In this document: piece after piece, positions 2,875-45,241 of the stretch
Layout: each line of letters begins with the position of its first letter
How positions within the stretch are numbered: position 1 is the first letter of the stretch
Origin: Chloroflexota bacterium
GTDB lineage: Bacteria > Chloroflexota > Anaerolineae > B4-G1 > SLSP01
NCBI GenBank assembly: GCA_019873725.1
Contig: JAIOAS010000002.1
Coordinates: 1,012-65,011 of the forward strand
DNA: 64,000 bases
Direction: 5' to 3'
Translations under genes and position numbers: made by a program
The notes under the pieces: model-generated
The model's database searches: none
Seen by the model: the letters and a program-made list of their open reading frames with translations, nothing else
Told to the model about the DNA's origin: nothing

Positions 2875-3831
2875 ATGCGTATTCTGAAATCCATTCAATT
2901 CTGGGTCGGCCTGCTGCTCGTCGGGGGTGCGTTCGTGGGCGTGCTGCTGTTTGCGCAACTCACCACCCCGCCCACCTACGAAGTCGCCATCGCGGTGCAG
3001 GACATTCCGGCGTACACATCACTGCAAGACGCCTATACCAACGGTTATATTGCGTTGGACAAGCAATCGTTCAGCCCGTCGCTCTTGCAAGTCGTGCTGA
3101 CGCCCGAAACCTTGCAAGCGATGCTGGCCGATGGGGTCTTCGTCGAGACGGTCCGCGCGGGCGATGTGCTCAACCGAGGGCGCATTGCCACCGGTGAGAA
3201 CGCACAGAAAGTGCGCCGGCTGGCGCTGGCCCTCACCGATCCGCAATTGGTCATCAAGTCCATCCCAGTGGACGCCGAAACCACACCGTACATCGCGGTC
3301 GGCGACCTGGTGGACTTATACACCACGTTAGGCACCGTGCGCGCCACCGAGTTGGCGACCAGCACCGTGCCGCCTTTGCCCGCCGGGGTCACGCCACCCC
3401 CGCCCACACCGGAGCCGCTGCCCGACTACGAGGCGTTGACTCAGCCCGTGACGGTCACGCTGCAACTGCCGGTGACCAAGCGGGTGGTGGCCGGGGCCAT
3501 CGTGGTGCGCGTCAACCACGAGCAGATCGCCAACCCGCAGTATGGGGCGGTGACCGCCGATGGGCAACCCCAACCCGCACCGTTTATCGCCGGGCCGGTG
3601 GTGGGCGTGGACGTCCTCGTCCCCGAAACCACCGCCGAGAGCCTGGATTGGGCGGTGTTCAACGGCAAGATGTCCCTCGCGGTACGCCCCGCCATCTGGC
3701 GCGCGACCGTCGAGGCCGGGCAAGCCTTGCCGGAGACTCCGGGCTTCGCGTGGGAAGACTTCAATGCGGTGTTTTGGGGTGGTAGACGGCAGACGGTAGA
3801 CAGTAGACAGGGGGAGACGGAGACACGGTAA
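2875..3831 (+). CDS. cpaB: Flp pilus assembly protein CpaB/RcpC
   Basis: N-terminal TM helix (WVGLLLVGGAFVGVLLF), then SAF-like region (YEVAIAVQDIPAYTSL...GDVLNRGRI) and CpaB C-terminal domain. RBS aaggagacaaacgaaATG. Confidence 0.75.
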   Translation: MRILKSIQFWVGLLLVGGAFVGVLLFAQLTTPPTYEVAIAVQDIPAYTSLQDAYTNGYIALDKQSFSPSLLQVVLTPETLQAMLADGVFVETVRAGDVLNRGRIATGENAQKVRRLALALTDPQLVIKSIPVDAETTPYIAVGDLVDLYTTLGTVRATELATSTVPPLPAGVTPPPPTPEPLPDYEALTQPVTVTLQLPVTKRVVAGAIVVRVNHEQIANPQYGAVTADGQPQPAPFIAGPVVGVDVLVPETTAESLDWAVFNGKMSLAVRPAIWRATVEAGQALPETPGFAWEDFNAVFWGGRRQTVDSRQGETETR

Positions 3832-3940
3832 TGGGATGACGGGGTGACAAGGTGAGTGGGTGACAGCGTGAGATTCACCCTTTGTCCCCTCTCCCCTTCC
3901 CCCCGCCCCGTCTACCGTCTACCGTCTACTGTCTACTCTC
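3781..3940. repeat. tandem-heptamer inverted-repeat hairpin element (GGTAGAC family), nested arms
   Basis: ggtagacggcagacggtagacagtagacag ... ccccgtctaccgtctaccgtctactgtctac. Inner G-rich/C-rich arms pair with G-U wobbles. Confidence 0.65.
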
Positions 3941-3953
3941 CGAAGGAGGAACT

Positions 3954-5321
3954 ATGGAACGCATCAAGATTGTCATCGGCACAAAGGTATGGGACGACGT
4001 GCAGCGTCTGGAACGGGCGCTGTCCGAGATACCCGAAATGCAAATCGTCGCCGGGCCAACCACAGCTTCAGGGGTGTTTGCCGACGCCACCGAGATGGAG
4101 GCGGACATCGTACTTTTGTCGCCCACACTGCCAGGCTTTCGGCCAGAACTGGTGAGTGAACTGCTGCACTACGACGAGCGGCCCATTGCTTGCATTGGGC
4201 TGCTGCCCCCGCTGGAATCGCGCACTGACGAGTTACTGGCTCTGGGGATGAAAGGCCACGTCTCGTTGCCCCTCGACGACGCGCAGTTGCGGCGCTTGCT
4301 GGAACTGATCCCCAACGCCGTCACCCAGGCGCGCGCCGAACGGGCCAGCAGCAGCTACGTCGCCCTGGACACACCCACACTCTACACTCTGGCGGAGGCC
4401 GGGTGGCGACGCATGGTCATCGCCTTGTGGGGCACGGGCGGCGGCGTGGGCAAGACCAGCCTGGCGATCAACCTCGCGGCAGCCTTGGGCGTCATCGGCC
4501 AGCGCACTACCCTGTTGATGGACCTGGATATGACCCGCGGCGCAGTCGCGCCCCGCCTGGGCCTATCCCCGAAGGAAAACATCTACGGCCTGATCAATAC
4601 TTTACTGCTGGACTATCTGCGCACTCGGAATGCCAGTTGCCCGCCGCAGACGCTCCAGACGAAAGTGCAACTGTGGAACACCAGGCTGGCCTCGAAGCTG
4701 CACTGCCTGAGCGGTATCGCCTCAATGGAGGTCGCGGGCCGGGCAGAGTTCCGCGACGATCCGCACCGCACGCAGGCACTGACCCGCGCCATCATCGACA
4801 CCGCGCGCAAGCTCTATGACTTTGTGATCATCGACCTGGGGCCGGACATCAACAATGACGTGCATTTCGCCGCACTGGACGCCGCCGACCTGGTGCTGAC
4901 CGTGGTGCGGCCCGATGTGGCCGATATGCACTCCACCGGTCAGACTGTGCCGCGCCTGAAGCAGACCTTTGGCGAGGGCATCGGCAAGTTCGAGTTGGTC
5001 ATCAACCAGTGGAGCACCGAAACAGGTCTCAAGCTGAAGGACGTGATCAGCACCATTGGGATGAAGAAGTTCGCCCAAGTGCCCTACGATCCGCAGTTCA
5101 CCTACAGCAACAACCACCAGATGCCCTTCGTGCTGGAAAAGCCCAATCCCACGTCGGACGCGATTGTGTCAATGGCGGTGCGCTTTTACCCGCCGTTAGC
5201 GAACACCTGGGTTAGCCGTGGCGGGCAGATCGAAGGCGAGGCGGCAGCGTTCAAGCCACCGGAGCGTCGCAAAGAGCCGGGGCTGTGGCAGCAGGTGCAG
5301 AGTGTGTTCGTGGGGAAATGA
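3954..5321 (+). CDS. cpaE: Flp pilus assembly ATPase-like protein CpaE/TadZ
   Basis: Receiver-like N-domain (MERIKIVIGTKVWDD...IVLLSP) plus MinD/ParA domain with ALWGTGGGVGKTSLAINLAAAL. RBS gaaggaggaactATG. The upstream in-frame ORF start at 3882 lies inside a repeat element. Confidence 0.8.
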   Translation: MERIKIVIGTKVWDDVQRLERALSEIPEMQIVAGPTTASGVFADATEMEADIVLLSPTLPGFRPELVSELLHYDERPIACIGLLPPLESRTDELLALGMKGHVSLPLDDAQLRRLLELIPNAVTQARAERASSSYVALDTPTLYTLAEAGWRRMVIALWGTGGGVGKTSLAINLAAALGVIGQRTTLLMDLDMTRGAVAPRLGLSPKENIYGLINTLLLDYLRTRNASCPPQTLQTKVQLWNTRLASKLHCLSGIASMEVAGRAEFRDDPHRTQALTRAIIDTARKLYDFVIIDLGPDINNDVHFAALDAADLVLTVVRPDVADMHSTGQTVPRLKQTFGEGIGKFELVINQWSTETGLKLKDVISTIGMKKFAQVPYDPQFTYSNNHQMPFVLEKPNPTSDAIVSMAVRFYPPLANTWVSRGGQIEGEAAAFKPPERRKEPGLWQQVQSVFVGK

Positions 5322-5323
5322 AA

Positions 5324-5462
5324 CTGGTTGCTAGTTGCTGGTTGCTGGTTGCTGGTTGCTTGAAGCTCGATGCTCGATCCAGCAACGTGTAACCAGCAAC
5401 AAGTAACGAGTATCCAGTATCGAGTATCCAGTATCCAGCATCGAGCAACCAGCAACAAACAA
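5324..5462. repeat. tandem-heptamer inverted-repeat hairpin element (CTGGTTG / CCAGCAA family)
   Basis: ctggttgctagttgctggttgctggttgctggttgc...ccagcaacgtgtaaccagcaacaagtaacgagtatccagtatcgag. Confidence 0.65.
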
Positions 5463-5478
5463 CGAGGAGAGAGGAACA

Positions 5479-6279
5479 ATGAAAGAAAGCATCTTTTTGG
5501 AACGCGAAGTAGATCACGCGCGGCGCATTGGACTGTCGGAACGTCGGACCGGGATGTTGCGCCGGACGTTGGCGTTGAAACGGGAAGGATATACCCCCAG
5601 GCGCATCCGTGTCCAGATGTGCAAGGCCAACGTCACCTGGCGTGTGGCGCTGCGGACGCAGGAGGAGTTGGAACAGGAATTAGGCGTGGCGTGGGAAGGT
5701 GGGGTTTACGTCCCTGACAGTCCCGCTGTGCCCGCCGAGCAAGCGCAAGCCGTGGCCGAGGCCGGACGTGAACAGGCGCGGGGTAGCAACAAGCACCTCC
5801 GCGCCCAGTACGGTCTGCACAATGGCAGCACCGCGCCATACGGCTACGTTTTTGGCCCGGACATCACCATCAAGACCGCCGACGGGCAATCTTTGACCGG
5901 ACACAGCTTAGTCCCTGACCCAGATACAGCGGTTGTCGTAGCCGACATCTTCGCACAGTTCATCGGTGGGGCGTCGCCGTATACCATCGCCGCCGACCTG
6001 AACCGGCGCGGCATCGGCAGTCCCAACGGCGGACGCTGGGGCGAGGCCAACGTGCGCGACATCGTGCGCCGCGCGCCGCTGTACTCCGGGTACGTTGTCT
6101 ACCACGACGCGGCCCACAAGCAGGCGCGCTGGACGGGGATGCTGTACCCCGGCCAACACGAGGCCCTGATCGATTGGGAAACCACCCTGGCAGTCCTGGC
6201 TGTCACCGGACGCACATTGGAATGGACGTTTGGCCCGACACGGGAAGAAGCCACGCTTGCGACACCGGAGGTAGCCTGA
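5479..6279 (+). CDS. HTH + serine-recombinase 'Recombinase' domain protein lacking resolvase catalytic domain
   Basis: APYGYVFGPD...LVPDPDTAVVVADIFAQFIGGASPYTIAADLNRRGIGSPNGGRWGEANVRDIVRRAPLYSGYVVYH matches the Pfam Recombinase (PF07508) consensus. No S-Q-Y catalytic motif. N-terminal HTH-like RRIGLSERRTGMLRRTL. Confidence 0.55.
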   Translation: MKESIFLEREVDHARRIGLSERRTGMLRRTLALKREGYTPRRIRVQMCKANVTWRVALRTQEELEQELGVAWEGGVYVPDSPAVPAEQAQAVAEAGREQARGSNKHLRAQYGLHNGSTAPYGYVFGPDITIKTADGQSLTGHSLVPDPDTAVVVADIFAQFIGGASPYTIAADLNRRGIGSPNGGRWGEANVRDIVRRAPLYSGYVVYHDAAHKQARWTGMLYPGQHEALIDWETTLAVLAVTGRTLEWTFGPTREEATLATPEVA

Positions 6280-7616
6280 TGGCAGCGCCCTCGACCTTTG
6301 CCCAACGGGTCGCCGCGCACGCCACTGCGGAGTACCCCGATCCCTACACGGGCTTGCTCGCTGCTGCCCGTGACCGCCTGGCCGGACAGTTTAGCCTGGA
6401 AGCCTTGCGCACGCCCACTGCCCACGTCGAACGCGAGGCCGAGACGCTGCTGCGTTCCCTGGTCGAAGAACACGCGAATGCCGCGCTGCAACACGGCCGG
6501 CCCTTTACCGAGCCGCTGGAGGAGCTGGTCGCGCGCTTGCAGTACGACATCTTTGGCTACGGCGTCATCACCCCGTATCTGAATATGCCCACCGTCGAGG
6601 AAATTATGATCAACGGCCCGGACGTGATCTGGGTGGACGACGCCGAACGGGGAATGTACCGCGCCAGCGTGCGATTCGAGAGTCCGCGTGAGGTGCAGAA
6701 ACTCGTCGACCGCATCGCTGCGCGGCACGGACGGCGCTTCGACCGCTCCAACCCACGGGTCAACGCCAAGATGCCGGACGGCAGCCGCCTCAACGCCGTG
6801 ATGGAACCGCTGGTGGACAATGTGCCCGTCGCGGTGACGATCCGCCGCCACCGCCTGGTCGCCCGCACGCTGGATGACCTGGTGCGATTAGGGACGCTCA
6901 CTGCCGACATTGCGGGTTTCCTTAAGGAATGCGTGCTGGGCCGCCTCAACCTCATCGTCACTGGCGGCACGGGATCGGGCAAGACCAACACCCTCAACGC
7001 CCTGTGCGCCGTTCTCCCCCCGGAAGAACGGGTGGTCACCGTGGAAGATACCCCGGAACTCCAACTCGGTTTGGATAACTGGATTGCGATGGTCACCACG
7101 GAAGAAACTGAAGAAGGCCAACGTCCGATCACGCTGGACGACCTGGTGATCAACGCCTTGCGGATGCGCCCCGACCGCATCGTCACCGGTGAGGCGCGCG
7201 GGGCGGAGATTCGCTCCGTCCTGATGGCGGCTAACACCGGCCACGACGGGCAACTGCTGACCTTGCACTCCAATGGCGTCCACGAGATTGCCAACCGCGT
7301 GGTGCAGATGTGGCAACTGGCCGACTCAGCGATGGCCCCCGGCGTGATCACGCGTTATCTGGTCGATGCCTTCGACCTGGTGCTCTACATCGAGCGCGTC
7401 ACGGTCAACGGCCAACGCCGCCGCATCGTGCGCGAGGTCGCTGAGTTGCTGCCGTCGCGCCAGATGGAAGGTGACATCCCAGCGATCAATGTACTGTGGC
7501 AGGATACCGGCAATGGCTTGCAGTGGACGGGTCTGTATCCGCAGACGCTGGAAGAGAGCATCTACCTGCGCACCGGGCAACAGGTCAGCCTGCACCGCTA
7601 CTTCAAACGGGGGTGA
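6279..7616 (+). CDS. cpaF: Flp pilus assembly ATPase CpaF/TadA (VirB11-type secretion ATPase)
   Basis: LIVTGGTGSGKTNTLNAL Walker A, VTVEDTPELQL, RPDRIVTGEARG, and His box AANTGHDGQLLTLHSN. The ATG overlaps the previous stop (TGATGG). Confidence 0.9.
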   Translation: MAAPSTFAQRVAAHATAEYPDPYTGLLAAARDRLAGQFSLEALRTPTAHVEREAETLLRSLVEEHANAALQHGRPFTEPLEELVARLQYDIFGYGVITPYLNMPTVEEIMINGPDVIWVDDAERGMYRASVRFESPREVQKLVDRIAARHGRRFDRSNPRVNAKMPDGSRLNAVMEPLVDNVPVAVTIRRHRLVARTLDDLVRLGTLTADIAGFLKECVLGRLNLIVTGGTGSGKTNTLNALCAVLPPEERVVTVEDTPELQLGLDNWIAMVTTEETEEGQRPITLDDLVINALRMRPDRIVTGEARGAEIRSVLMAANTGHDGQLLTLHSNGVHEIANRVVQMWQLADSAMAPGVITRYLVDAFDLVLYIERVTVNGQRRRIVREVAELLPSRQMEGDIPAINVLWQDTGNGLQWTGLYPQTLEESIYLRTGQQVSLHRYFKRG

Positions 7617-7621
7617 GGACG

Positions 7622-7750
7622 ATGCGTTTTCTATGGGGAACACAAGCTGAAGCCGAGGTCAGTATGGTGCTGGTCGTTGGGCTGGTTCTGGTCTGCCTCG
7701 TAGTATTTGTGGCGTGTGCCGCGATGGGCGCGCCGCTGGGAGCTGTGTAG
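7622..7750 (+). CDS. small hydrophobic protein (42 aa), possible Flp-like or minor pilin
   Basis: MRFLWGTQAEAEVSMVLVVGLVLVCLVVFVACAAMGAPLGAV: a Gly followed by acidic residues and a ~22-aa hydrophobic helix. RBS ggtgaggac 6 nt upstream. Located between cpaF and cpaA. Confidence 0.3.
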   Translation: MRFLWGTQAEAEVSMVLVVGLVLVCLVVFVACAAMGAPLGAV

Positions 7751-8451
7751 TGAGTCAAGGGACAACCGCTGTCACACTCGTGCCCGCCCTGGTCGGCCTC
7801 TGGCTGGCTTGGTTGAGCTACGGCGATCGGCGGACACGCAACGTCCCGGCCTGGGCCACAGCCTTGCCCCTGGCAGTGTTGGGATTGCTGCGTGTTGTTG
7901 TAGTCCCACCGGATGGCGTGGTTGTACCTGGCGGCGCAGCGGTGGGGTTCGCCCTGCTGATGCTCTTGCTGTCCGACACGCCGTCCGCCATCTTCCCTGC
8001 CGGGGCCGCTGCGTTCTGCGCCGGACTCTCCGGGGAGCAGGCGCAAGTCCTGGTAGGCAGTTGGATCGCTGCGTTGGTGCTCGTTGACCTGAACATCTGG
8101 GGCGCAGGGGACGGCAAAGTGTTGGCCGTGTTGACGGCGCTGTATCCCGATGTGCGGGTACTGGTCGCAATGGGTATAGCTTTGCTCGCGGGCGGTGTGG
8201 TGACCTTGCTCCGGCACCGCCCACGCATTGGCGAACGCCGCACTTTCCCCGCCATCCCCTGGTTGGCAGTGGGAACAATGCTCTACCTGGTGTTGGTAGC
8301 GGTCAGCAATCAGCGTTCAGCTATCAGCTTCGGACTGCCAGCATCAAGCAACCAGCTTCCAGCATCCAATATTCAGCATTCACTCCCAAGTGCAAGGACT
8401 TCGGACTTTCGACTTTGGACTTGGGACTACTTTCAAGGAGGTTCACATTGA
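7750..8451 (+). CDS. cpaA: prepilin peptidase CpaA/TadV (A24 family)
   Basis: Polytopic membrane protein with LVDLNIWGAGDGKVLAVLTALYPD (the aspartyl peptidase DGK-type motif). GTG start at 7750 or ATG at 7714. The last ~48 aa are encoded by a repeat element and overlap the tadB start. Confidence 0.65.
   Translation: MSQGTTAVTLVPALVGLWLAWLSYGDRRTRNVPAWATALPLAVLGLLRVVVVPPDGVVVPGGAAVGFALLMLLLSDTPSAIFPAGAAAFCAGLSGEQAQVLVGSWIAALVLVDLNIWGAGDGKVLAVLTALYPDVRVLVAMGIALLAGGVVTLLRHRPRIGERRTFPAIPWLAVGTMLYLVLVAVSNQRSAISFGLPASSNQLPASNIQHSLPSARTSDFRLWTWDYFQGGSH
8301..8432. repeat. tandem-heptamer repeat element (CAGCNNT / CCAGC / GGACTT arms) encoding the cpaA C-terminal tail
   Basis: ggtcagcaatcagcgttcagctatcagcttcggactgccagcatcaagcaaccagcttccagcatcc...ggacttcggactttcgactttggacttgggac. 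Confidence 0.55.
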
Positions 8452-10264: not shown

Positions 10265-10346
10265 GACAGGATTAACAGGATTTTCAGGATTGGCAAAGGC
10301 TTTATGAGGTCTTTTTTCATCCTGTTCATCCTGGCAATCCTGTCCA
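10265..10346. repeat. CAGGATT-family inverted tandem repeat; paralog at 60713-60784
   Basis: gacaggattaacaggattttcaggatt ... catcctgttcatcctggcaatcctgtcc. The left arm is the exact reverse complement of the arm at 60758-60784. Confidence 0.7.
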
Positions 10347-10502
10347 AAGAAAGGAGGTGATGCCTATTGAATGACGACAACTAACCCATAACGGTCCCGC
10401 ACCTTACCGGGGGCGCAGTGCGTTCCACTGCGTCCCCACTTAACCGAAGCCATTCATAGTTCAGCCAAATCAGTTTCAGGCAGAAGGAGGAGAGATAAGC
10501 CT

Positions 10503-10787
10503 ATGAACATCGTGCAACGCACTCAAGATACAGTCACCCTGACCTATCTGCGGGTCAGCCAGCGTCTCGCGGCGCATCCCATCGCGCGACGGCTCAGCGC
10601 CTTGCAGCAGGGACGGGTCAAGCAGGCTTTGGCCTGCGAAGAGGGACAAGGCTTGCTGGAGTACATCATCGGCATCGCCGGGGTCTTTGTCGTCGCCGCT
10701 GCGGTGTTGGCGCTGTACCGCGCCATCCGCGGCAAGTACGGCGAAGCGACCAACAGCGTCAATTCGCTGACCATCACCGCGCCCTAA
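10503..10787 (+). CDS. flp: Flp family type IVb pilin (long leader)
   Basis: EEGQGLLEYIIGIAGVFVVAAAVLAL matches the G/XXXXEY Flp processing motif and is followed by a hydrophobic helix. Strong RBS aggagg. Unusually long ~47-aa leader. Confidence 0.7.
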   Translation: MNIVQRTQDTVTLTYLRVSQRLAAHPIARRLSALQQGRVKQALACEEGQGLLEYIIGIAGVFVVAAAVLALYRAIRGKYGEATNSVNSLTITAP

Positions 10788-19875: not shown

Positions 19876-20010
19876 GCTAGTTGCTGGTTGCTGGAAGCTC
19901 GAAGCTGGAAACTGGAAGCTGGAAAAGCCAGTGACCAGCAACCAGCAACCAGTAACCAGTAACCAGTAACCAGCTTCCAGCATCAAGTATCCAGCTTCAA
20001 GTATCAAGAA
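19876..20010. repeat. CTGGTTG/CTGGAAG inverted tandem-heptamer hairpin element
   Basis: gctagttgctggttgctggaagctcgaagctggaaactggaagctgg ... ccagtgaccagcaaccagcaaccagtaaccagtaaccagtaaccagcttccagc. Confidence 0.65.
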
Positions 20011-20030
20011 TCTCACAAGGAGGAACGTTT

Positions 20031-38920: not shown

Positions 38921-38990
38921 CATTCCAGTATCGAGCTTCCAGCATCCAGCCTCAAGCTTCCAGCTTCCAGCATCCAGCCTCAAGCCCCAA
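38921..38990. repeat. GCTGGAA/GCTGGAT tandem repeats forming the methyltransferase C-terminal tail
   Basis: cagtatcgagcttccagcatccagcctcaagcttccagcttccagcatccagcctcaagc. Confidence 0.5.
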
Positions 38991-41900
38991 CTTCCCCTGC
39001 ACCATCTCCACCCGCTCCTCTTCCTCCGCCGGGACCTCCAACGCCTCGAAGAACGCCGCGCGGATGCCGTCCAGCGCCGCCGCCTCCGGGCGGACGAACT
39101 TGCCCTTGACCTTGCCGCGCGGCACGGCATTGATGAACGCTTGCAGCGCCGCCTTGAACGCGCCATCCGCGCCCAAACCGCTCTTCTTGAGGAACGCCTC
39201 GCAGGCCGCCGCGCCATCCTCCGCGTAGACGAGCATCACGGTATGGACGGCGTCCAGCCAGGTGTCGTAGTGTTTGGCTTCGGGGTCCACTTTGCCACGC
39301 GCGCGGCGCTGTTTGGGTTGGAGCATGGTGACGTCGCTGCCGCTCTTGCTGATGACGCGCTGCGCCACCAGATCGCGCTCCACGTCCAGCCCCAGCGCCA
39401 GGGCGAGCTTGCGTGCTTCGTCCGCCGGGAAGGTCTCCGCCTGGAACGCATCCCACGCCATCAACGCCCAATCGGTGACGGGATCGAACTGCACGTCGCG
39501 CCCCAGGAGCAGGCCGCGCTTGCGTAAGGCAATGACTTCTTCGCGGGCCAGATCGAGCGCGGTTTCCGGGCGCAAGGCTCTGGGCTGCCCGGTGCGTTCG
39601 TCCACCTCGCGGGTGAGGACGGGCCAGCGTTCGGAAATGACGGCGAGCACGGGGCCAAAGGTGCTCAGGTAAAGATCGACGCCGCTGATGCCCTGCGCGT
39701 TGAACTCCGCCGCCTTCTCGCGGGCCACAGCGCGCACGCGCGGCGCGAGATCGTCCCACCAGACGGGTTGCTCGAAGCTGGAAGCTGGATACTCGATACT
39801 GGAAGCTGGTTGCTGGATGCTGACGGCTGATAGCTGACGGCTGACGGCTGACGGCTCGCTGCGTTTCCGGCACACCAGCAGTATCGTGCTCTGCGCGGCG
39901 TTTTTCTTGGCCTGGTGGAGGGAGTGCTCGCTTTCGGTGTGGACGGGCCACGAGGCGGTAATGGTGAACCCGGCGTTGATGAGCGCCATCGCCAGGGTGT
40001 CCCACGCTTCGACCTGTTTGTGGGTGAACATCACGGTGAGGACGCCGTCGTCGCGGAGGACGCGCGCCATCTCGCGGAAGGACGCGCCCATTTTGCGCTC
40101 GTAGTCCTGCGCGGCCATCTCCCGTTTGTTGCCGCCCAGATCGGTAAAGCGGGCAGGATTGGCAACGGCTTCGGCGTCCTTGTCGGTGAGTTGGGCAGCG
40201 AACCACTCCGGGTAGAGGTGGCCCACGGTGCGCTTGAGCCACACGTAGAAAAAGTCCGCGAGTTCTGCGTACATCACGTTGTCGTAGTAGGGCGGGTCGG
40301 TGACGATGACATCCACCGAACCATCCGCCAGCGCGGCGAGGCGGGCGGCGTTGCCTTGAAGCTGCGTAAGCGGGCCGCGTGCCATTGCCGCCGTTCCCAA
40401 CTTCGCCGGCGCGAAGGCAAGCAAATCGGCCATATCTTTGTAGGCATCGGCAACTTGACTGATGGCCCACGGCATCAAGTTGGCCGAAGCGTCGAATTCA
40501 CCGTGACTCCAGACAAAAGCGTAATCGTGGCGGTCGAAATTGCTGCGCAGCCCTCGGCTTGGGTCGAAACGGCACAGCCGGTTGTTATAGATCACCATCT
40601 TGTCCATCATCAGACCGAGATAAGCTTCGATGGCAGGAGCGCGTTCTTCGCCCAAGACTTTATAGATTTCAGGGCGTAGTTCTGACAAAGTTTCGATGGC
40701 TGTCCCCATCGCTAACAGTTGTCGCGGTGAGAAGAAGTCCGACCAGATCGGCATCCCGTACAATGCCGGCCGCATATCATTGCCCTGTGGGAACGCCTCC
40801 GTCGGAATCAAATCCCGTGCTTCCCACAGCGGACGTCTGCGAGCCAGTTCCGCCTCCGCCGCCGCGACGGCGTCCAGGTCGGCCTCGGTGGGCGCGCGGA
40901 AGTCGAAGCCGCCACGCCGTTTGAGCGCCACCGAGTAGAGCATCTGCCCCATGCGCCCGGCCTGCGCCTCGGCTTTGATGTAGTCGCCGTCAATGGCGTC
41001 GCCGGTCCACGGGGAGCGGCCTGTGCCCCGGCTCACCGTGCCTTCGTCGGGGTCGTACTGTAAGGGTGAGGCATCCCCACCCACACCGTCGTTCACTACC
41101 TCCCATGCGTCTTCCGTGGTGTCTTGACGATTACGTTGATTGCCGGGATGCCTCGCCCGTACGATCTCGAAGCGCGGCGCATCCCAGGCCGGGTCGGTCA
41201 GCACGCGGACGGCTATGGGCGGGGATTTGCTCAGCCACCAGTTAGGGCTGAGTGGGACGGGCTTTCCCGTCACCGGGCAGGCGACGGTCCGCGCCCAGAG
41301 GTAGGCGAAGATGTTCTCGCCTTTACCCTTGGGGAAATACGGTGCGAGTTTCTCCTGTACCCGTTTGGCCCACACATTCCCCCACTTTTTGATGTCCGCC
41401 GCCAGTTCCGGGCCGAACGTCGCAGGGTAGTCGAGTGTGGCCTTGAGGATGACGCACGCCACAGGGTTGAGTTCGTTGGCAATGGTCGCCAGCCCGTAGC
41501 GCCGCGCCTCAAAAGGAATCGAACCGCCGCCAGCAAAGGGATCGAGGACGACGACGTCTTTCAAAGACCTGACAGGTCTCGGAAGACCTGTCAGGTCTAG
41601 CAGTTTCTCGAAAAGCGCCAGGTCGTCGGCTTCAGGGTTGACGGTGAAGGCGCGGGCATAACCATAGGGATTCGCACCCAGGTCTTCGCCGGTTACACGG
41701 GCATTGAGCAGTATCTGGCGCATCTTTGCCGGATCCCCCTTGATGCCGAGGAACCGCAGGAACCAGGCGCGATAGGCGGCCTCGTCGTCGAAAGGATTCG
41801 TAGCACAGGCTTCCAGCCTGTCCCACGCCGGCAACAACGAAGCCACAATCGCCGCGCGGGAGATCGTCAACGGGCGGCGCGCCCACCAGACATGGAGACG

Positions 41901-44221: not shown

Positions 44222-45241
44222 TTATTCCTCCGCCAGCAGTACCCGTAACGCCTTCTGCGCACGAATGGCATCCGGCCCGGCGGTGCATTTGCTGAACCAG
44301 TAATAGGCTTCCTCACCGCTCATCGCCTGGATGCCCTGCCCAATCGCCTCGATGCGATCCTGGCGCGTCAGCGGCTTCACCGCCAGCAAGATCAGCGCCA
44401 GGCGCAGCCCCGTCGGTTCGTCAAGGTAGAAAGGCTTGTCGCTGCCCACAGCGCGGGCCAGGTCGGTGGCCTTGTAGCCATTGGCGCGCAGCGCCGCGAG
44501 CAGGTGCTCGGTCGTCGCGTGGAGCGTCTGCGCATCCACGTCCACGCTCCACAACGCCTGTGCGGCGGGCTTTGTGGCCTGCTCGTAAGCGAATTTGGCA
44601 GTCTGCCGCCCATTGAGCCACTGGTATAACGCCGCGCGGTAGCCCCCGGCAGGATCAGGCAACGTGTAGAGCACAAAAGGCCGGGCCGGGTCGGGTTGGA
44701 AGCTGGGTGCTGGTTGCTGGATACTGGTTGCTGGTTGCTGGATGCTGGATGCTGGATGCTCGATGCTGGATGCTGGATGCTCGATGCTGGATGCTGGTTG
44801 CTGAGGGCTGACCGCTGACTGCTGATAGCTAATAGCTGACGGCTGACGGCTGATAGCTGATGGCTGATCGCTGACATCGAAGAGACGGCGGCGGCCGGCG
44901 GTATGCAGCGGTGCGGGCAGGCGTTGCGGAGCGGCGAAGAACCAGCCAAAGCACGGCGCGCCGGGAAAGGGTTGGTCCAGGCGGTGCTGGGCTTGCAAGG
45001 CTGCGTAAGATTCGGCGTCCAGCGCGCGGATCTCGACCAGTTCCACCGTCCCGAGGAGTGCGCCGTAGGCCAGCGCATCGGGATCGAAGCCCAGGGCGCG
45101 GCAGCGTGCGTCCCGGCGCGTGGCGGCGGCGTGCACTGCCAACGGGCCGCGATAGGCCGTCTGCCAGGTGCGGATGTCCACCGTCTTTTCACCGCGGACG
45201 ATCTGCTCCGCGCGCGGCTGGTGGAAGCTCAAAGCTTTCAC
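44222..45241 (-). CDS. ASCH-domain protein fused via repeat-encoded linker to DUF3780-like C-terminal domain
   Basis: ASCH: MKALSFHQPRAEQIVRGEKTVDIRTWQTAYRGPLAVHAA...GTVELVEI. Linker SDQPSAISRQPSAISYQQSAVSPQQPASSIEHPASSIEHPASSIQQPATSIQQP encoded by heptamer repeats. The C-terminal ~170 aa sit in the position expected for DUF3780 in DUF1156/DUF499 cassettes. Confidence 0.5.
   Translation of the reverse strand: MKALSFHQPRAEQIVRGEKTVDIRTWQTAYRGPLAVHAAATRRDARCRALGFDPDALAYGALLGTVELVEIRALDAESYAALQAQHRLDQPFPGAPCFGWFFAAPQRLPAPLHTAGRRRLFDVSDQPSAISRQPSAISYQQSAVSPQQPASSIEHPASSIEHPASSIQQPATSIQQPAPSFQPDPARPFVLYTLPDPAGGYRAALYQWLNGRQTAKFAYEQATKPAAQALWSVDVDAQTLHATTEHLLAALRANGYKATDLARAVGSDKPFYLDEPTGLRLALILLAVKPLTRQDRIEAIGQGIQAMSGEEAYYWFSKCTAGPDAIRAQKALRVLLAEE
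44698..44876. repeat. heptamer repeats (CTGGATG/CTCGATG + GCTGACG types) inside the ASCH-DUF3780 coding sequence
   Basis: ggatgctggatgctggatgctcgatgctggatgctggatgctcgatgctggatgctggttgctgagggctgaccgctgactgctgatagctaatagctgacggctgacggctgatagctgatggctgatcgctgac. Confidence 0.65.

Follow-up and report, generated by a model that had tools for sequence, protein, structure and literature searches.

This report concerns a gene in the Tad pilus locus of an Anaerolineae bacterium (phylum Chloroflexota), found on a stretch of 64,000 nucleotides (nt) of contig JAIOAS010000002.1, which is referred to as the window throughout. The open reading frame (ORF) at 5479-6279 of the plus strand starts with ATG, sits between cpaE and cpaF, and encodes a 266-amino acid protein that contains the Recombinase domain (RD) of large serine recombinases (LSRs) and lacks their catalytic domain. 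The Tad-linked protein is not a recombinase. In every strain examined, at least one intact copy of the gene is retained under purifying selection. Judging from the sequence, the gene product may well be a non-catalytic accessory or regulatory factor that is made together with the Tad motor ATPase, its mode of action being left general. The feature is real and reproducible, its architecture and genomic placement are undescribed, selection on it is clear, and it occurs as a pair of a conserved and a variable paralog, designated A and B, the window gene being of type A. The following parts are distinguished:

5479-6279, plus strand: LSR-derived gene without a catalytic domain, paralog type A, 266 amino acids (ORF and PF07508)
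5479-5718, plus strand: N-terminal family-specific domain, amino acids 1-80 (AlphaFold2 model, AF2, and conservation)
5719-5802, plus strand: linker, amino acids 81-108 (HMMER alignment to Bxb1; predicted local distance difference test, pLDDT, 34-48)
5803-6213, plus strand: RD, amino acids ~109-245 (Pfam, PHROG 95, Foldseek)
6214-6279, plus strand: C-terminal tail, amino acids 246-266, containing the cpaF Shine-Dalgarno sequence and the TGA/ATG overlap
5464-5474, plus strand: strong Shine-Dalgarno sequence GAGGAGAGAGG of the type-A gene (from the sequence)

Pfam assigns amino acids 148-239 to PF07508 (Recombinase; E=1.1e-13, 51.7 bits at a cut-off of 21.1) as the sole significant family, and the Resolvase family PF00239 is not matched. 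A preceding reading made from the DNA letters and their translations (the sequence-only reading) had described a Recombinase domain without a catalytic Ser domain, and both statements are borne out. The NCBIfam scan of the protein gave no match, and no Tad family is matched in either collection. All 14 family members scanned match PF07508; none of the 14 matches PF00239, even at E<=1, and none matches Zn_ribbon_recom (PF13408). PHROG 95 ('integrase') aligns to amino acids 89-236 only (E=2e-23), the LSR alignments of the profile search begin at query positions ~87-91, and HMMER pairs residues 88-183 with residues 129-214 of Bxb1 integrase, a region that runs from the end of helix alphaE through the linker to the middle of the RD; the C-terminal part of the window protein's linker aligns with the alphaE end and the alphaE-RD linker of LSRs. 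The motifs GxxPYGY and W...V..IV...LY.GY are found in the RD. In the full-length AF2 model, which was built from 13 family sequences and has a mean pLDDT of 64.8, the RD core (amino acids 120-205) reaches block means of 58-93, mostly 77-93, the N-terminal helices are also well predicted, and values are low at amino acids 78-103, 209-221, and 246-266. The comparison with LSR structures that the sequence-only reading had proposed was made with this model: Foldseek retrieved from the PDB nothing but LSRs, via the RD alone (E 2e-6 to 1e-3, probability 1.0), namely SPbeta integrase (9dxh, E=2e-6), Bxb1 (9iu2), the LI/A118 integrase-DNA structure (4kis), and PhiC31.

The protein ends ~20 residues after the RD, with no zinc ribbon and no coiled coil, and has one Cys in its whole length. 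Measured against the features of an LSR, the RD (PF07508, DBD1) is present, while the PF00239 catalytic domain with its nucleophilic serine, the zinc ribbon with embedded coiled coil (PF13408, DBD2), and a location at an element edge with att sites are all missing; cpaE and cpaF flank the gene in all loci, and no further mobile genetic element (MGE) genes, element ends, or att-like sites were found beside it at the Tad loci. As it has no catalytic domain, the protein cannot cut or exchange DNA strands. Having one of the three domains that define LSRs, it ought not to be classed among the recombinases; some orthologs are labelled 'recombinase family protein' by NCBI.

Modelled alone by AF2 from 18 sequences, amino acids 1-80 reach a pLDDT of 89.7 and a predicted template modelling score (pTM) of 0.79, and are folded into five helices (10-17, 21-35, 40-47, 54-58, 61-68) and a beta-hairpin. 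F6, H13, R28, L64, and L68 are invariant in this domain, which is basic in the window allele (isoelectric point, pI, 9.8). It has no Pfam match, no significant sequence match in the PDB, and no significant fold match in the PDB or among the viral folds of BFVD; a profile search with the domain alone returned only fragments of its own family. The best fold matches (E>0.8) are recurrently helix-turn-helix (HTH) proteins, namely FixJ, RcsB, ECF sigma, CsgD, and small terminase, so that an HTH-like nature is plausible but unproven. The HTH class considered for the domain was the tetra-helical one of sigma-70 region 4 and LuxR-GerE transcription factors. The sequence-only reading had taken the N-terminus for a non-catalytic, short HTH-like segment. 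That it is not catalytic holds, while the rest calls for a refinement: the segment is an autonomous 80-amino acid domain and not a short one, and its HTH resemblances are statistically insignificant.

The gene is tied to its downstream neighbour at the level of translation. Its stop codon TGA (6277-6279) and the cpaF start codon ATG (6279-6281) have one A in common (TGATGG), and the cpaF Shine-Dalgarno sequence GGAGG (6267-6271) lies inside the final codons of the type-A ORF; the embedding between cpaE and cpaF and the translational linkage, both noted from the sequence alone, are thereby confirmed. In all loci read, the stop codon of the cpaF-adjacent copy overlaps the cpaF ATG, except in L055, where the copy ends 6 nt upstream. 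The start context ...GGAGAGAGGAACAATG is identical before both copies, A and B, at L001, and its close variant GGAGAGAGTAACAATG precedes copy A at L004. The immediate surroundings in the window are as follows:

3954-5321, plus strand: cpaE/tadZ-like ParA/MinD ATPase, 455 amino acids from the ATG at 3954 (AAA_31, E=2e-13; CbiA, E=7e-11)
5324-5466, no strand assigned: intergenic palindrome of heptamer tandem repeats, (CTGGTTG)n...(CAACCAG)n, a predicted long RNA hairpin
6279-7616, plus strand: cpaF/tadA secretion ATPase, 445 amino acids (T2SSE, E=5.6e-43)

Whole-protein matches form 18 clusters among 5.8e9 proteins, every taxonomically labelled one of them from metagenome-assembled genomes (MAGs) of Anaerolineae, and in the close-family scan the Tad-linked form was found in two of 185,579 GTDB species representatives, again both Anaerolineae MAGs. 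Genomic look-ups, together with a metagenome scan seeded with CpaF, yielded about 20 distinct related Tad loci, all with the same gene order, in which cpaE orthologs have 455 amino acids throughout and cpaF orthologs are 92-98% identical. Orthologs of A, 77-92% identical, occupy the same position in these loci. Most related strains have two tandem paralogs, ~50% identical to each other: A, which is of the window type and conserved, and B, which is highly variable and, where present, always adjoins cpaF (in L024-L055, at the equivalent of window position 6279). Both are intact in tandem at 12 fully read loci, and L037 and L047 give full-length matches to both; A alone is found in the window, L006-8, and L034, and in L001/L039 A is frameshifted and B intact. 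No locus of the Tad clade among those examined lacks both. In the window itself, tblastn detected neither a second copy of the gene nor a full integrase, and a Resolvase-domain gene is missing from the window (tblastn) as well as from the related loci. The distribution within tad loci, which the sequence-only reading had named as a check, is therefore that of one Anaerolineae clade carrying A and/or B, with sister loci that have neither.

About 27 intact alleles at Tad loci, 256-267 amino acids long, follow the same two-module plan. By the Nei-Gojobori method, at a dS of about 0.35-0.65, median dN/dS is 0.14 for A (range 0.13-0.30), 0.37 for B, 0.14 for cpaE, and 0.05 for cpaF. The N-terminal domain and the RD are both constrained, and the RD of A is almost invariant. 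The median dN of B is 0.26 versus 0.02 for cpaF, i.e., more than 10-fold higher, and at least six B allele classes, deeply divergent from one another, can be told apart, with most of the variability in the linker, the tail, and the RD helices; in a crude region-wise Nei-Gojobori analysis no region of B exceeds a dN/dS of 1, and all medians are below 1. A truncated pseudogene is ruled out by the conservation, the ~27 intact alleles, and the dN/dS values, and to call the gene 'domesticated', as the sequence-only reading had done, is reasonable for a gene maintained by selection. Gene conversion is suggested by the A-like C-termini of some B alleles. The flanks are mosaic as well, in that pairs with identical cpaE or identical A have cpaF at a dS of ~0.35, and vice versa (L024-L055), which points to frequent homologous recombination among wastewater Anaerolineae strains.

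In sister loci with CpaF 82-87% and CpaE 71-79% identical (L042-L045, L053), cpaE is followed directly by cpaF. The closer ones have only a ~110-bp heptamer-repeat palindrome and a Shine-Dalgarno sequence between the two genes, and in L052, with CpaF 58% identical, the gap is ~14 bp. The empty site indicates that the gene was inserted into the cpaE-cpaF spacer in one sub-clade, and this repeat type of spacer is the insertion site of the gene or genes. Since the Tad system of the sister lineages evidently works without it, the gene is accessory and not a core Tad component; in keeping with this, it is none of the core Tad/Flp machinery proteins (TadZ/CpaE, TadA/CpaF, TadB, TadC, TadV, Flp, TadE/F, CpaB/RcpC).

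Relatives outside Tad loci were sought in an exhaustive hidden Markov model (HMM) search of 1.84e9 representatives, which gave 2,359 matches. Among the matches listed, nearly all are ordinary integrases of ~500 amino acids, aligned at query positions ~90-240 only. About 15 proteins of 246-314 amino acids align from residue 1 to ~255 with 31-38% identity; P0020-P0037 cover profile positions 1-255 with E values from 1e-46 to 1e-19. By its collinear full-length alignment with proteins of 246-314 amino acids, the window protein belongs with them to one 'N-terminal domain + RD' family, which has in common the N-terminal motif F..E...H..R...........RR.L and the RD; F6, H13, R28, L64, L68, G112, P120, G122, and W187 are invariant between Tad-linked and distant members. 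Several of the distant members retain a basic RD and have a C-terminal WECPW motif. None of their readable neighbourhoods is a Tad locus. In L009, the neighbours are a Xis-like HTH protein, an XRE repressor, an FtsK/SpoIIIE-like ATPase, ParA, and an HNH protein; L011, beside chromosomal genes, carries a pair of homologous Xis-like HTH genes on the upstream side and, on the downstream side, the start of a gene resembling single-stranded DNA-binding protein (SSB); and L013/14 contain DNA methylases, a PAPS-reductase-like gene, a weak sub-threshold TGT-like match, and Vut_1. In L019 (1505-3959), P0030, a protein of 300 amino acids without a catalytic domain, is encoded 2 nt upstream of a complete 517-amino acid integrase (Resolvase, Recombinase, and Zn ribbon), an adjacency which may point to an ancestral function of the family as integrase partner. 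In IMG/VR, INPHARED phages, and PLSDB plasmids no family member with N-terminal coverage was found; these returned ordinary integrases, via the RD only. Given its architecture and its mobile-element-like neighbourhoods, the family is best seen as a mobile-element-borne, catalysis-less LSR derivative, one branch of which would have been captured by a Tad operon. The tandem A/B paralogy, the empty site in sister loci, and the mobile-element-like contexts of the distant relatives go beyond the sequence-only reading. Five further proteins of 520-850 amino acids (P0025, P0033, P0036, P0038, P0041) each contain five to seven consecutive matches to the HTH segment of the RD (profile positions ~160-200). 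They are thus arrays of recombinase-like HTH repeats, and a catalytic domain is not evident in them.

In the preferred scenario, the gene product would be a cytoplasmic two-module protein, whose helical N-terminal domain (amino acids 1-80) and RD (amino acids ~109-245) would be joined by a remnant of helix alphaE. In the ancestor of one Anaerolineae clade, a copy from this very rare family would have landed between cpaE/tadZ and cpaF/tadA, in a spacer full of repeats, and duplication into A and B as well as translational coupling to cpaF would have followed. Most plausibly, the protein would regulate tad/pilin expression or Tad activity by binding either a specific DNA site or another protein; it would be neither a structural part of the pilus machine nor a recombinase. 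Several observations weigh against this scenario. The Tad systems of the sister lineages do without the gene, its non-synonymous rate is 2-7 times that of cpaF, and no DNA-binding fold is significantly matched by the N-terminal domain. Nor was a DNA target, an operator, or a conserved motif found that could be attributed to the protein. The charge of the RD is a further point: in nine bona fide LSRs it is basic (pI 8.1-10.4, net charge +1 to +8), the RD of the Tad-linked A proteins is acidic (pI 5.4-6.2, net charge -2 to -4; pI ~5.9 in the window allele), and for the RDs of B the net charge lies between about 0 and -12; in several B proteins the N-terminal domain is acidic also. Sequence-specific DNA binding by the RD together with an HTH-like N-terminal domain would be the classical expectation; the charges make such RD-type binding doubtful, especially for B, weaken the DNA-binding regulator of the pilus operon proposed in the sequence-only reading, and turn a move from DNA binding towards protein binding into a serious alternative. 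In view of these points, a function unrelated to the pilus, as a selfish or conflict-related passenger, may apply.

Protein binding is the essence of a reading in which the RD would act as an acidic interaction module on CpaE/TadZ or CpaF, the protein being a Tad-motor adaptor that tunes assembly, localisation, or the balance of extension and retraction. It is consistent with the conserved position between tadZ and tadA and the translational coupling to cpaF, with an RD devoid of the positive charge typical of DNA-binding RDs, and with the keeping of at least one copy in every strain of the clade. It is nevertheless somewhat unlikely, considering that sister Tad loci whose CpaF is 82-87% identical do without the gene and that B is extremely variable next to nearly invariant CpaE and CpaF, which would be unexpected for a partner of conserved surfaces. 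The lineage-specific insertion, the occurrence of duplication, pseudogenisation, and loss, the presence of at least six B allele classes while the flanks recombine freely, and the MGE-like contexts of the distant relatives would fit a mobile-element passenger that has nothing to do with pili, e.g., a decoy or dominant-negative protein directed against integrase-carrying elements, or one with some other conflict-related role, which would have settled in a permissive spacer and use the transcription of the operon. This, too, is unlikely: no other MGE genes or ends flank the gene, it holds one fixed position, coupled to cpaF, in ~20 distinct loci (with a 6-nt gap in L055), no region has a dN/dS above 1, and IMG/VR, INPHARED, and PLSDB yielded no match with N-terminal coverage. 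Quite unlikely is a reading of A and B as a new Tad-associated module, in which a conserved subunit A and a polymorphic B would constitute a mobile-element-derived, catalysis-dead integrase derivative. It would exert strain-specific control over the motor or the operon, or shield the cell from phages or elements that carry an integrase and exploit the pilus, e.g., through occupation of att-like DNA or poisoning of the assemblies that integrases form. If this were true, the A/B module would be a previously undescribed exaptation of the DNA-binding domain of a serine integrase.

The remaining readings keep the protein closer to recombination. As an accessory subunit, it might confer specificity or directionality on a full serine recombinase encoded elsewhere, which would switch the Tad locus by inversion or excision and thus bring about phase variation. 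To our knowledge, recombination directionality factors share no common sequence signature. The position of P0030 2 nt upstream of a complete 517-amino acid integrase in L019 would be in line with such a role, as would the control of surface appendages by serine invertases (PMC8987985). It is improbable all the same, for tblastn found no Resolvase-domain gene in the window and none is present in related loci, gene order is identical across the latter, and the inverted repeats are the ubiquitous heptamer palindromes only. The sequence-only reading had also considered a relic of a phase-variation recombinase and had asked for inverted repeats or invertible promoter segments nearby. In the window no invertible segment or promoter was found, the sole inverted repeats being the generic heptamer palindromes, and a Resolvase-domain gene is lacking. 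A decaying integrase, left as a pseudogene by an old prophage or phase-variation system, could account for the missing catalytic and zinc-ribbon domains, for the frameshifted A copy of L001/L039, and for the absence of B from the window. Such a relic is nonetheless hardly tenable: the N-terminus is a distinct, well-folded, conserved domain and not a truncated catalytic domain, about 27 alleles are intact despite a dS of 0.4-1.0, dN/dS is 0.14 (A) and 0.37 (B), and the Shine-Dalgarno sequence and the cpaF coupling are conserved. Simple truncation is likewise to be dismissed, the architecture being kept down to 31% identity in unrelated contexts, with ~27 intact alleles and dN/dS far below 1.

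Downstream of cpaF, the window continues with a 42-amino acid membrane peptide, the prepilin peptidase, TadB, TadC, a Flp-type pilin (10503-10787), a TadE-like pseudopilin, and large surface proteins. The hydrophobic 42-amino acid ORF between cpaF and the prepilin peptidase (7622-7750) is conserved and called as a gene in several related loci. Upstream of a CpaB-like gene lie two small overlapping genes of 243 and 186 amino acids (1544-2275 and 2269-2829) with degenerate ParA/TadZ-like P-loops; as they are kept in all related loci, the Tad locus has three ParA-like proteins. Upstream of the pilin ATG at 10503, a non-coding element of ~110 nt (~10340-10445) is conserved across four related loci. 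It comprises a Shine-Dalgarno sequence with a mini-ORF of four codons (ATG CCT ATT GAA TGA) and a GC-rich hairpin, GGGGGCGCAGTG-N6-CACTGCGTCCCC, without a match in Rfam, and may act on the pilin gene as a leader or attenuator. The element was also considered as a target of the Tad-linked protein; blastn detected neither the pilin gene nor its leader in L042-L044, the sister loci that stand closest. Rfam gave no match at gathering thresholds in or near the locus, and only chance-level matches at E<=1.

The palindrome at 5324-5466 has a folding energy of -70.4 kcal/mol (z = -7.7). Period-7 repeats in the form of imperfect palindromes occur in almost every intergenic gap, Tandem Repeats Finder giving about 30 rows in 64 kb, some of them overlapping; sites are, among others, 3782-3936, 8298-8428, 10266-10345, 19876-20012, 38923-38990, 39769-39856, and 44697-44875. 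At one and the same spacer the heptamer sequence varies by strain (GGCAAGA and similar in L001/L004). The repeats resemble the STRR repeats of cyanobacteria. As specific operators they were rejected, because the same class is present at >20 intergenic sites and its sequence differs among strains.

Serine integrases have been intensively studied and engineered. In the literature searched, no natural serine-integrase derivative that keeps only the RD under selection, no exapted catalysis-less serine integrase, and no recombinase-domain-only protein in Tad loci is described; the statement of the sequence-only reading that no Tad component of this type is known agrees with this. The pairing of the RD with a new N-terminal domain indicates that the RD can serve in roles other than recombination. 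As regards Tad pili, this is a case of a lineage-specific gene that lies between tadZ and tadA and is translated together with the motor ATPase. Its practical reach is limited at present, since the clade is narrow and uncultured. These filamentous Anaerolineae predominate in the biofilms of wastewater and digesters, where adhesion is presumed to be brought about by Tad pili, and the published Anaerolineae Tad cluster consists of pilA, cpaB, cpaE, cpaF, tadB, and tadC only (PMC4877987).

Among known systems, PprB is likewise the product of a non-structural, probably regulatory gene that is physically associated with Tad genes. PprB differs in being a response regulator whose gene lies beside the locus instead of in the tadZ-tadA interval; it is not homologous to the Tad-linked protein, and experiments have established what it does. 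The serine invertases Hin and Gin/Cin (PMC8987985) are comparable as mobile-element-derived relatives of serine recombinases linked to surface-appendage genes; they are catalytically active small serine recombinases that act on invertible segments, while the Tad-linked protein lacks a catalytic domain and no invertible segment was found for it. PF20552 (HTH_62, 'Recombinase-like helix-turn-helix domain') weakly matches the HTH sub-motif of the RD (amino acids ~165-200) in 12 of the 14 members (best E=3.6e-4), the window protein scoring 15.6 bits, far below the gathering threshold of 27, and containing the whole RD once instead of an isolated or repeated HTH. With LSRs such as Bxb1 Int, PhiC31 Int, SPbeta SprA, and Listeria A118/LI Int (PF00239 + PF07508 + PF13408), the protein shares a homologous RD, including the alphaE end, GxxPYGY, and the W...V..I...Y.G helix, and the association of its family with mobile elements. 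In contrast to them, it has a new N-terminal domain instead of the catalytic domain, no zinc ribbon or coiled coil, an acidic and not a basic RD, and 266 instead of ~500 amino acids. The metagenomic 'N-terminal domain + RD' proteins of 246-314 amino acids (P0020-P0037), labelled 'recombinase family protein' or 'hypothetical' in databases, have the same architecture over their full length; they differ from the Tad-linked proteins in their MGE-like contexts, made up of Xis-like HTH, FtsK-like, ParA, HNH, and SSB genes, methylases, and a full integrase.

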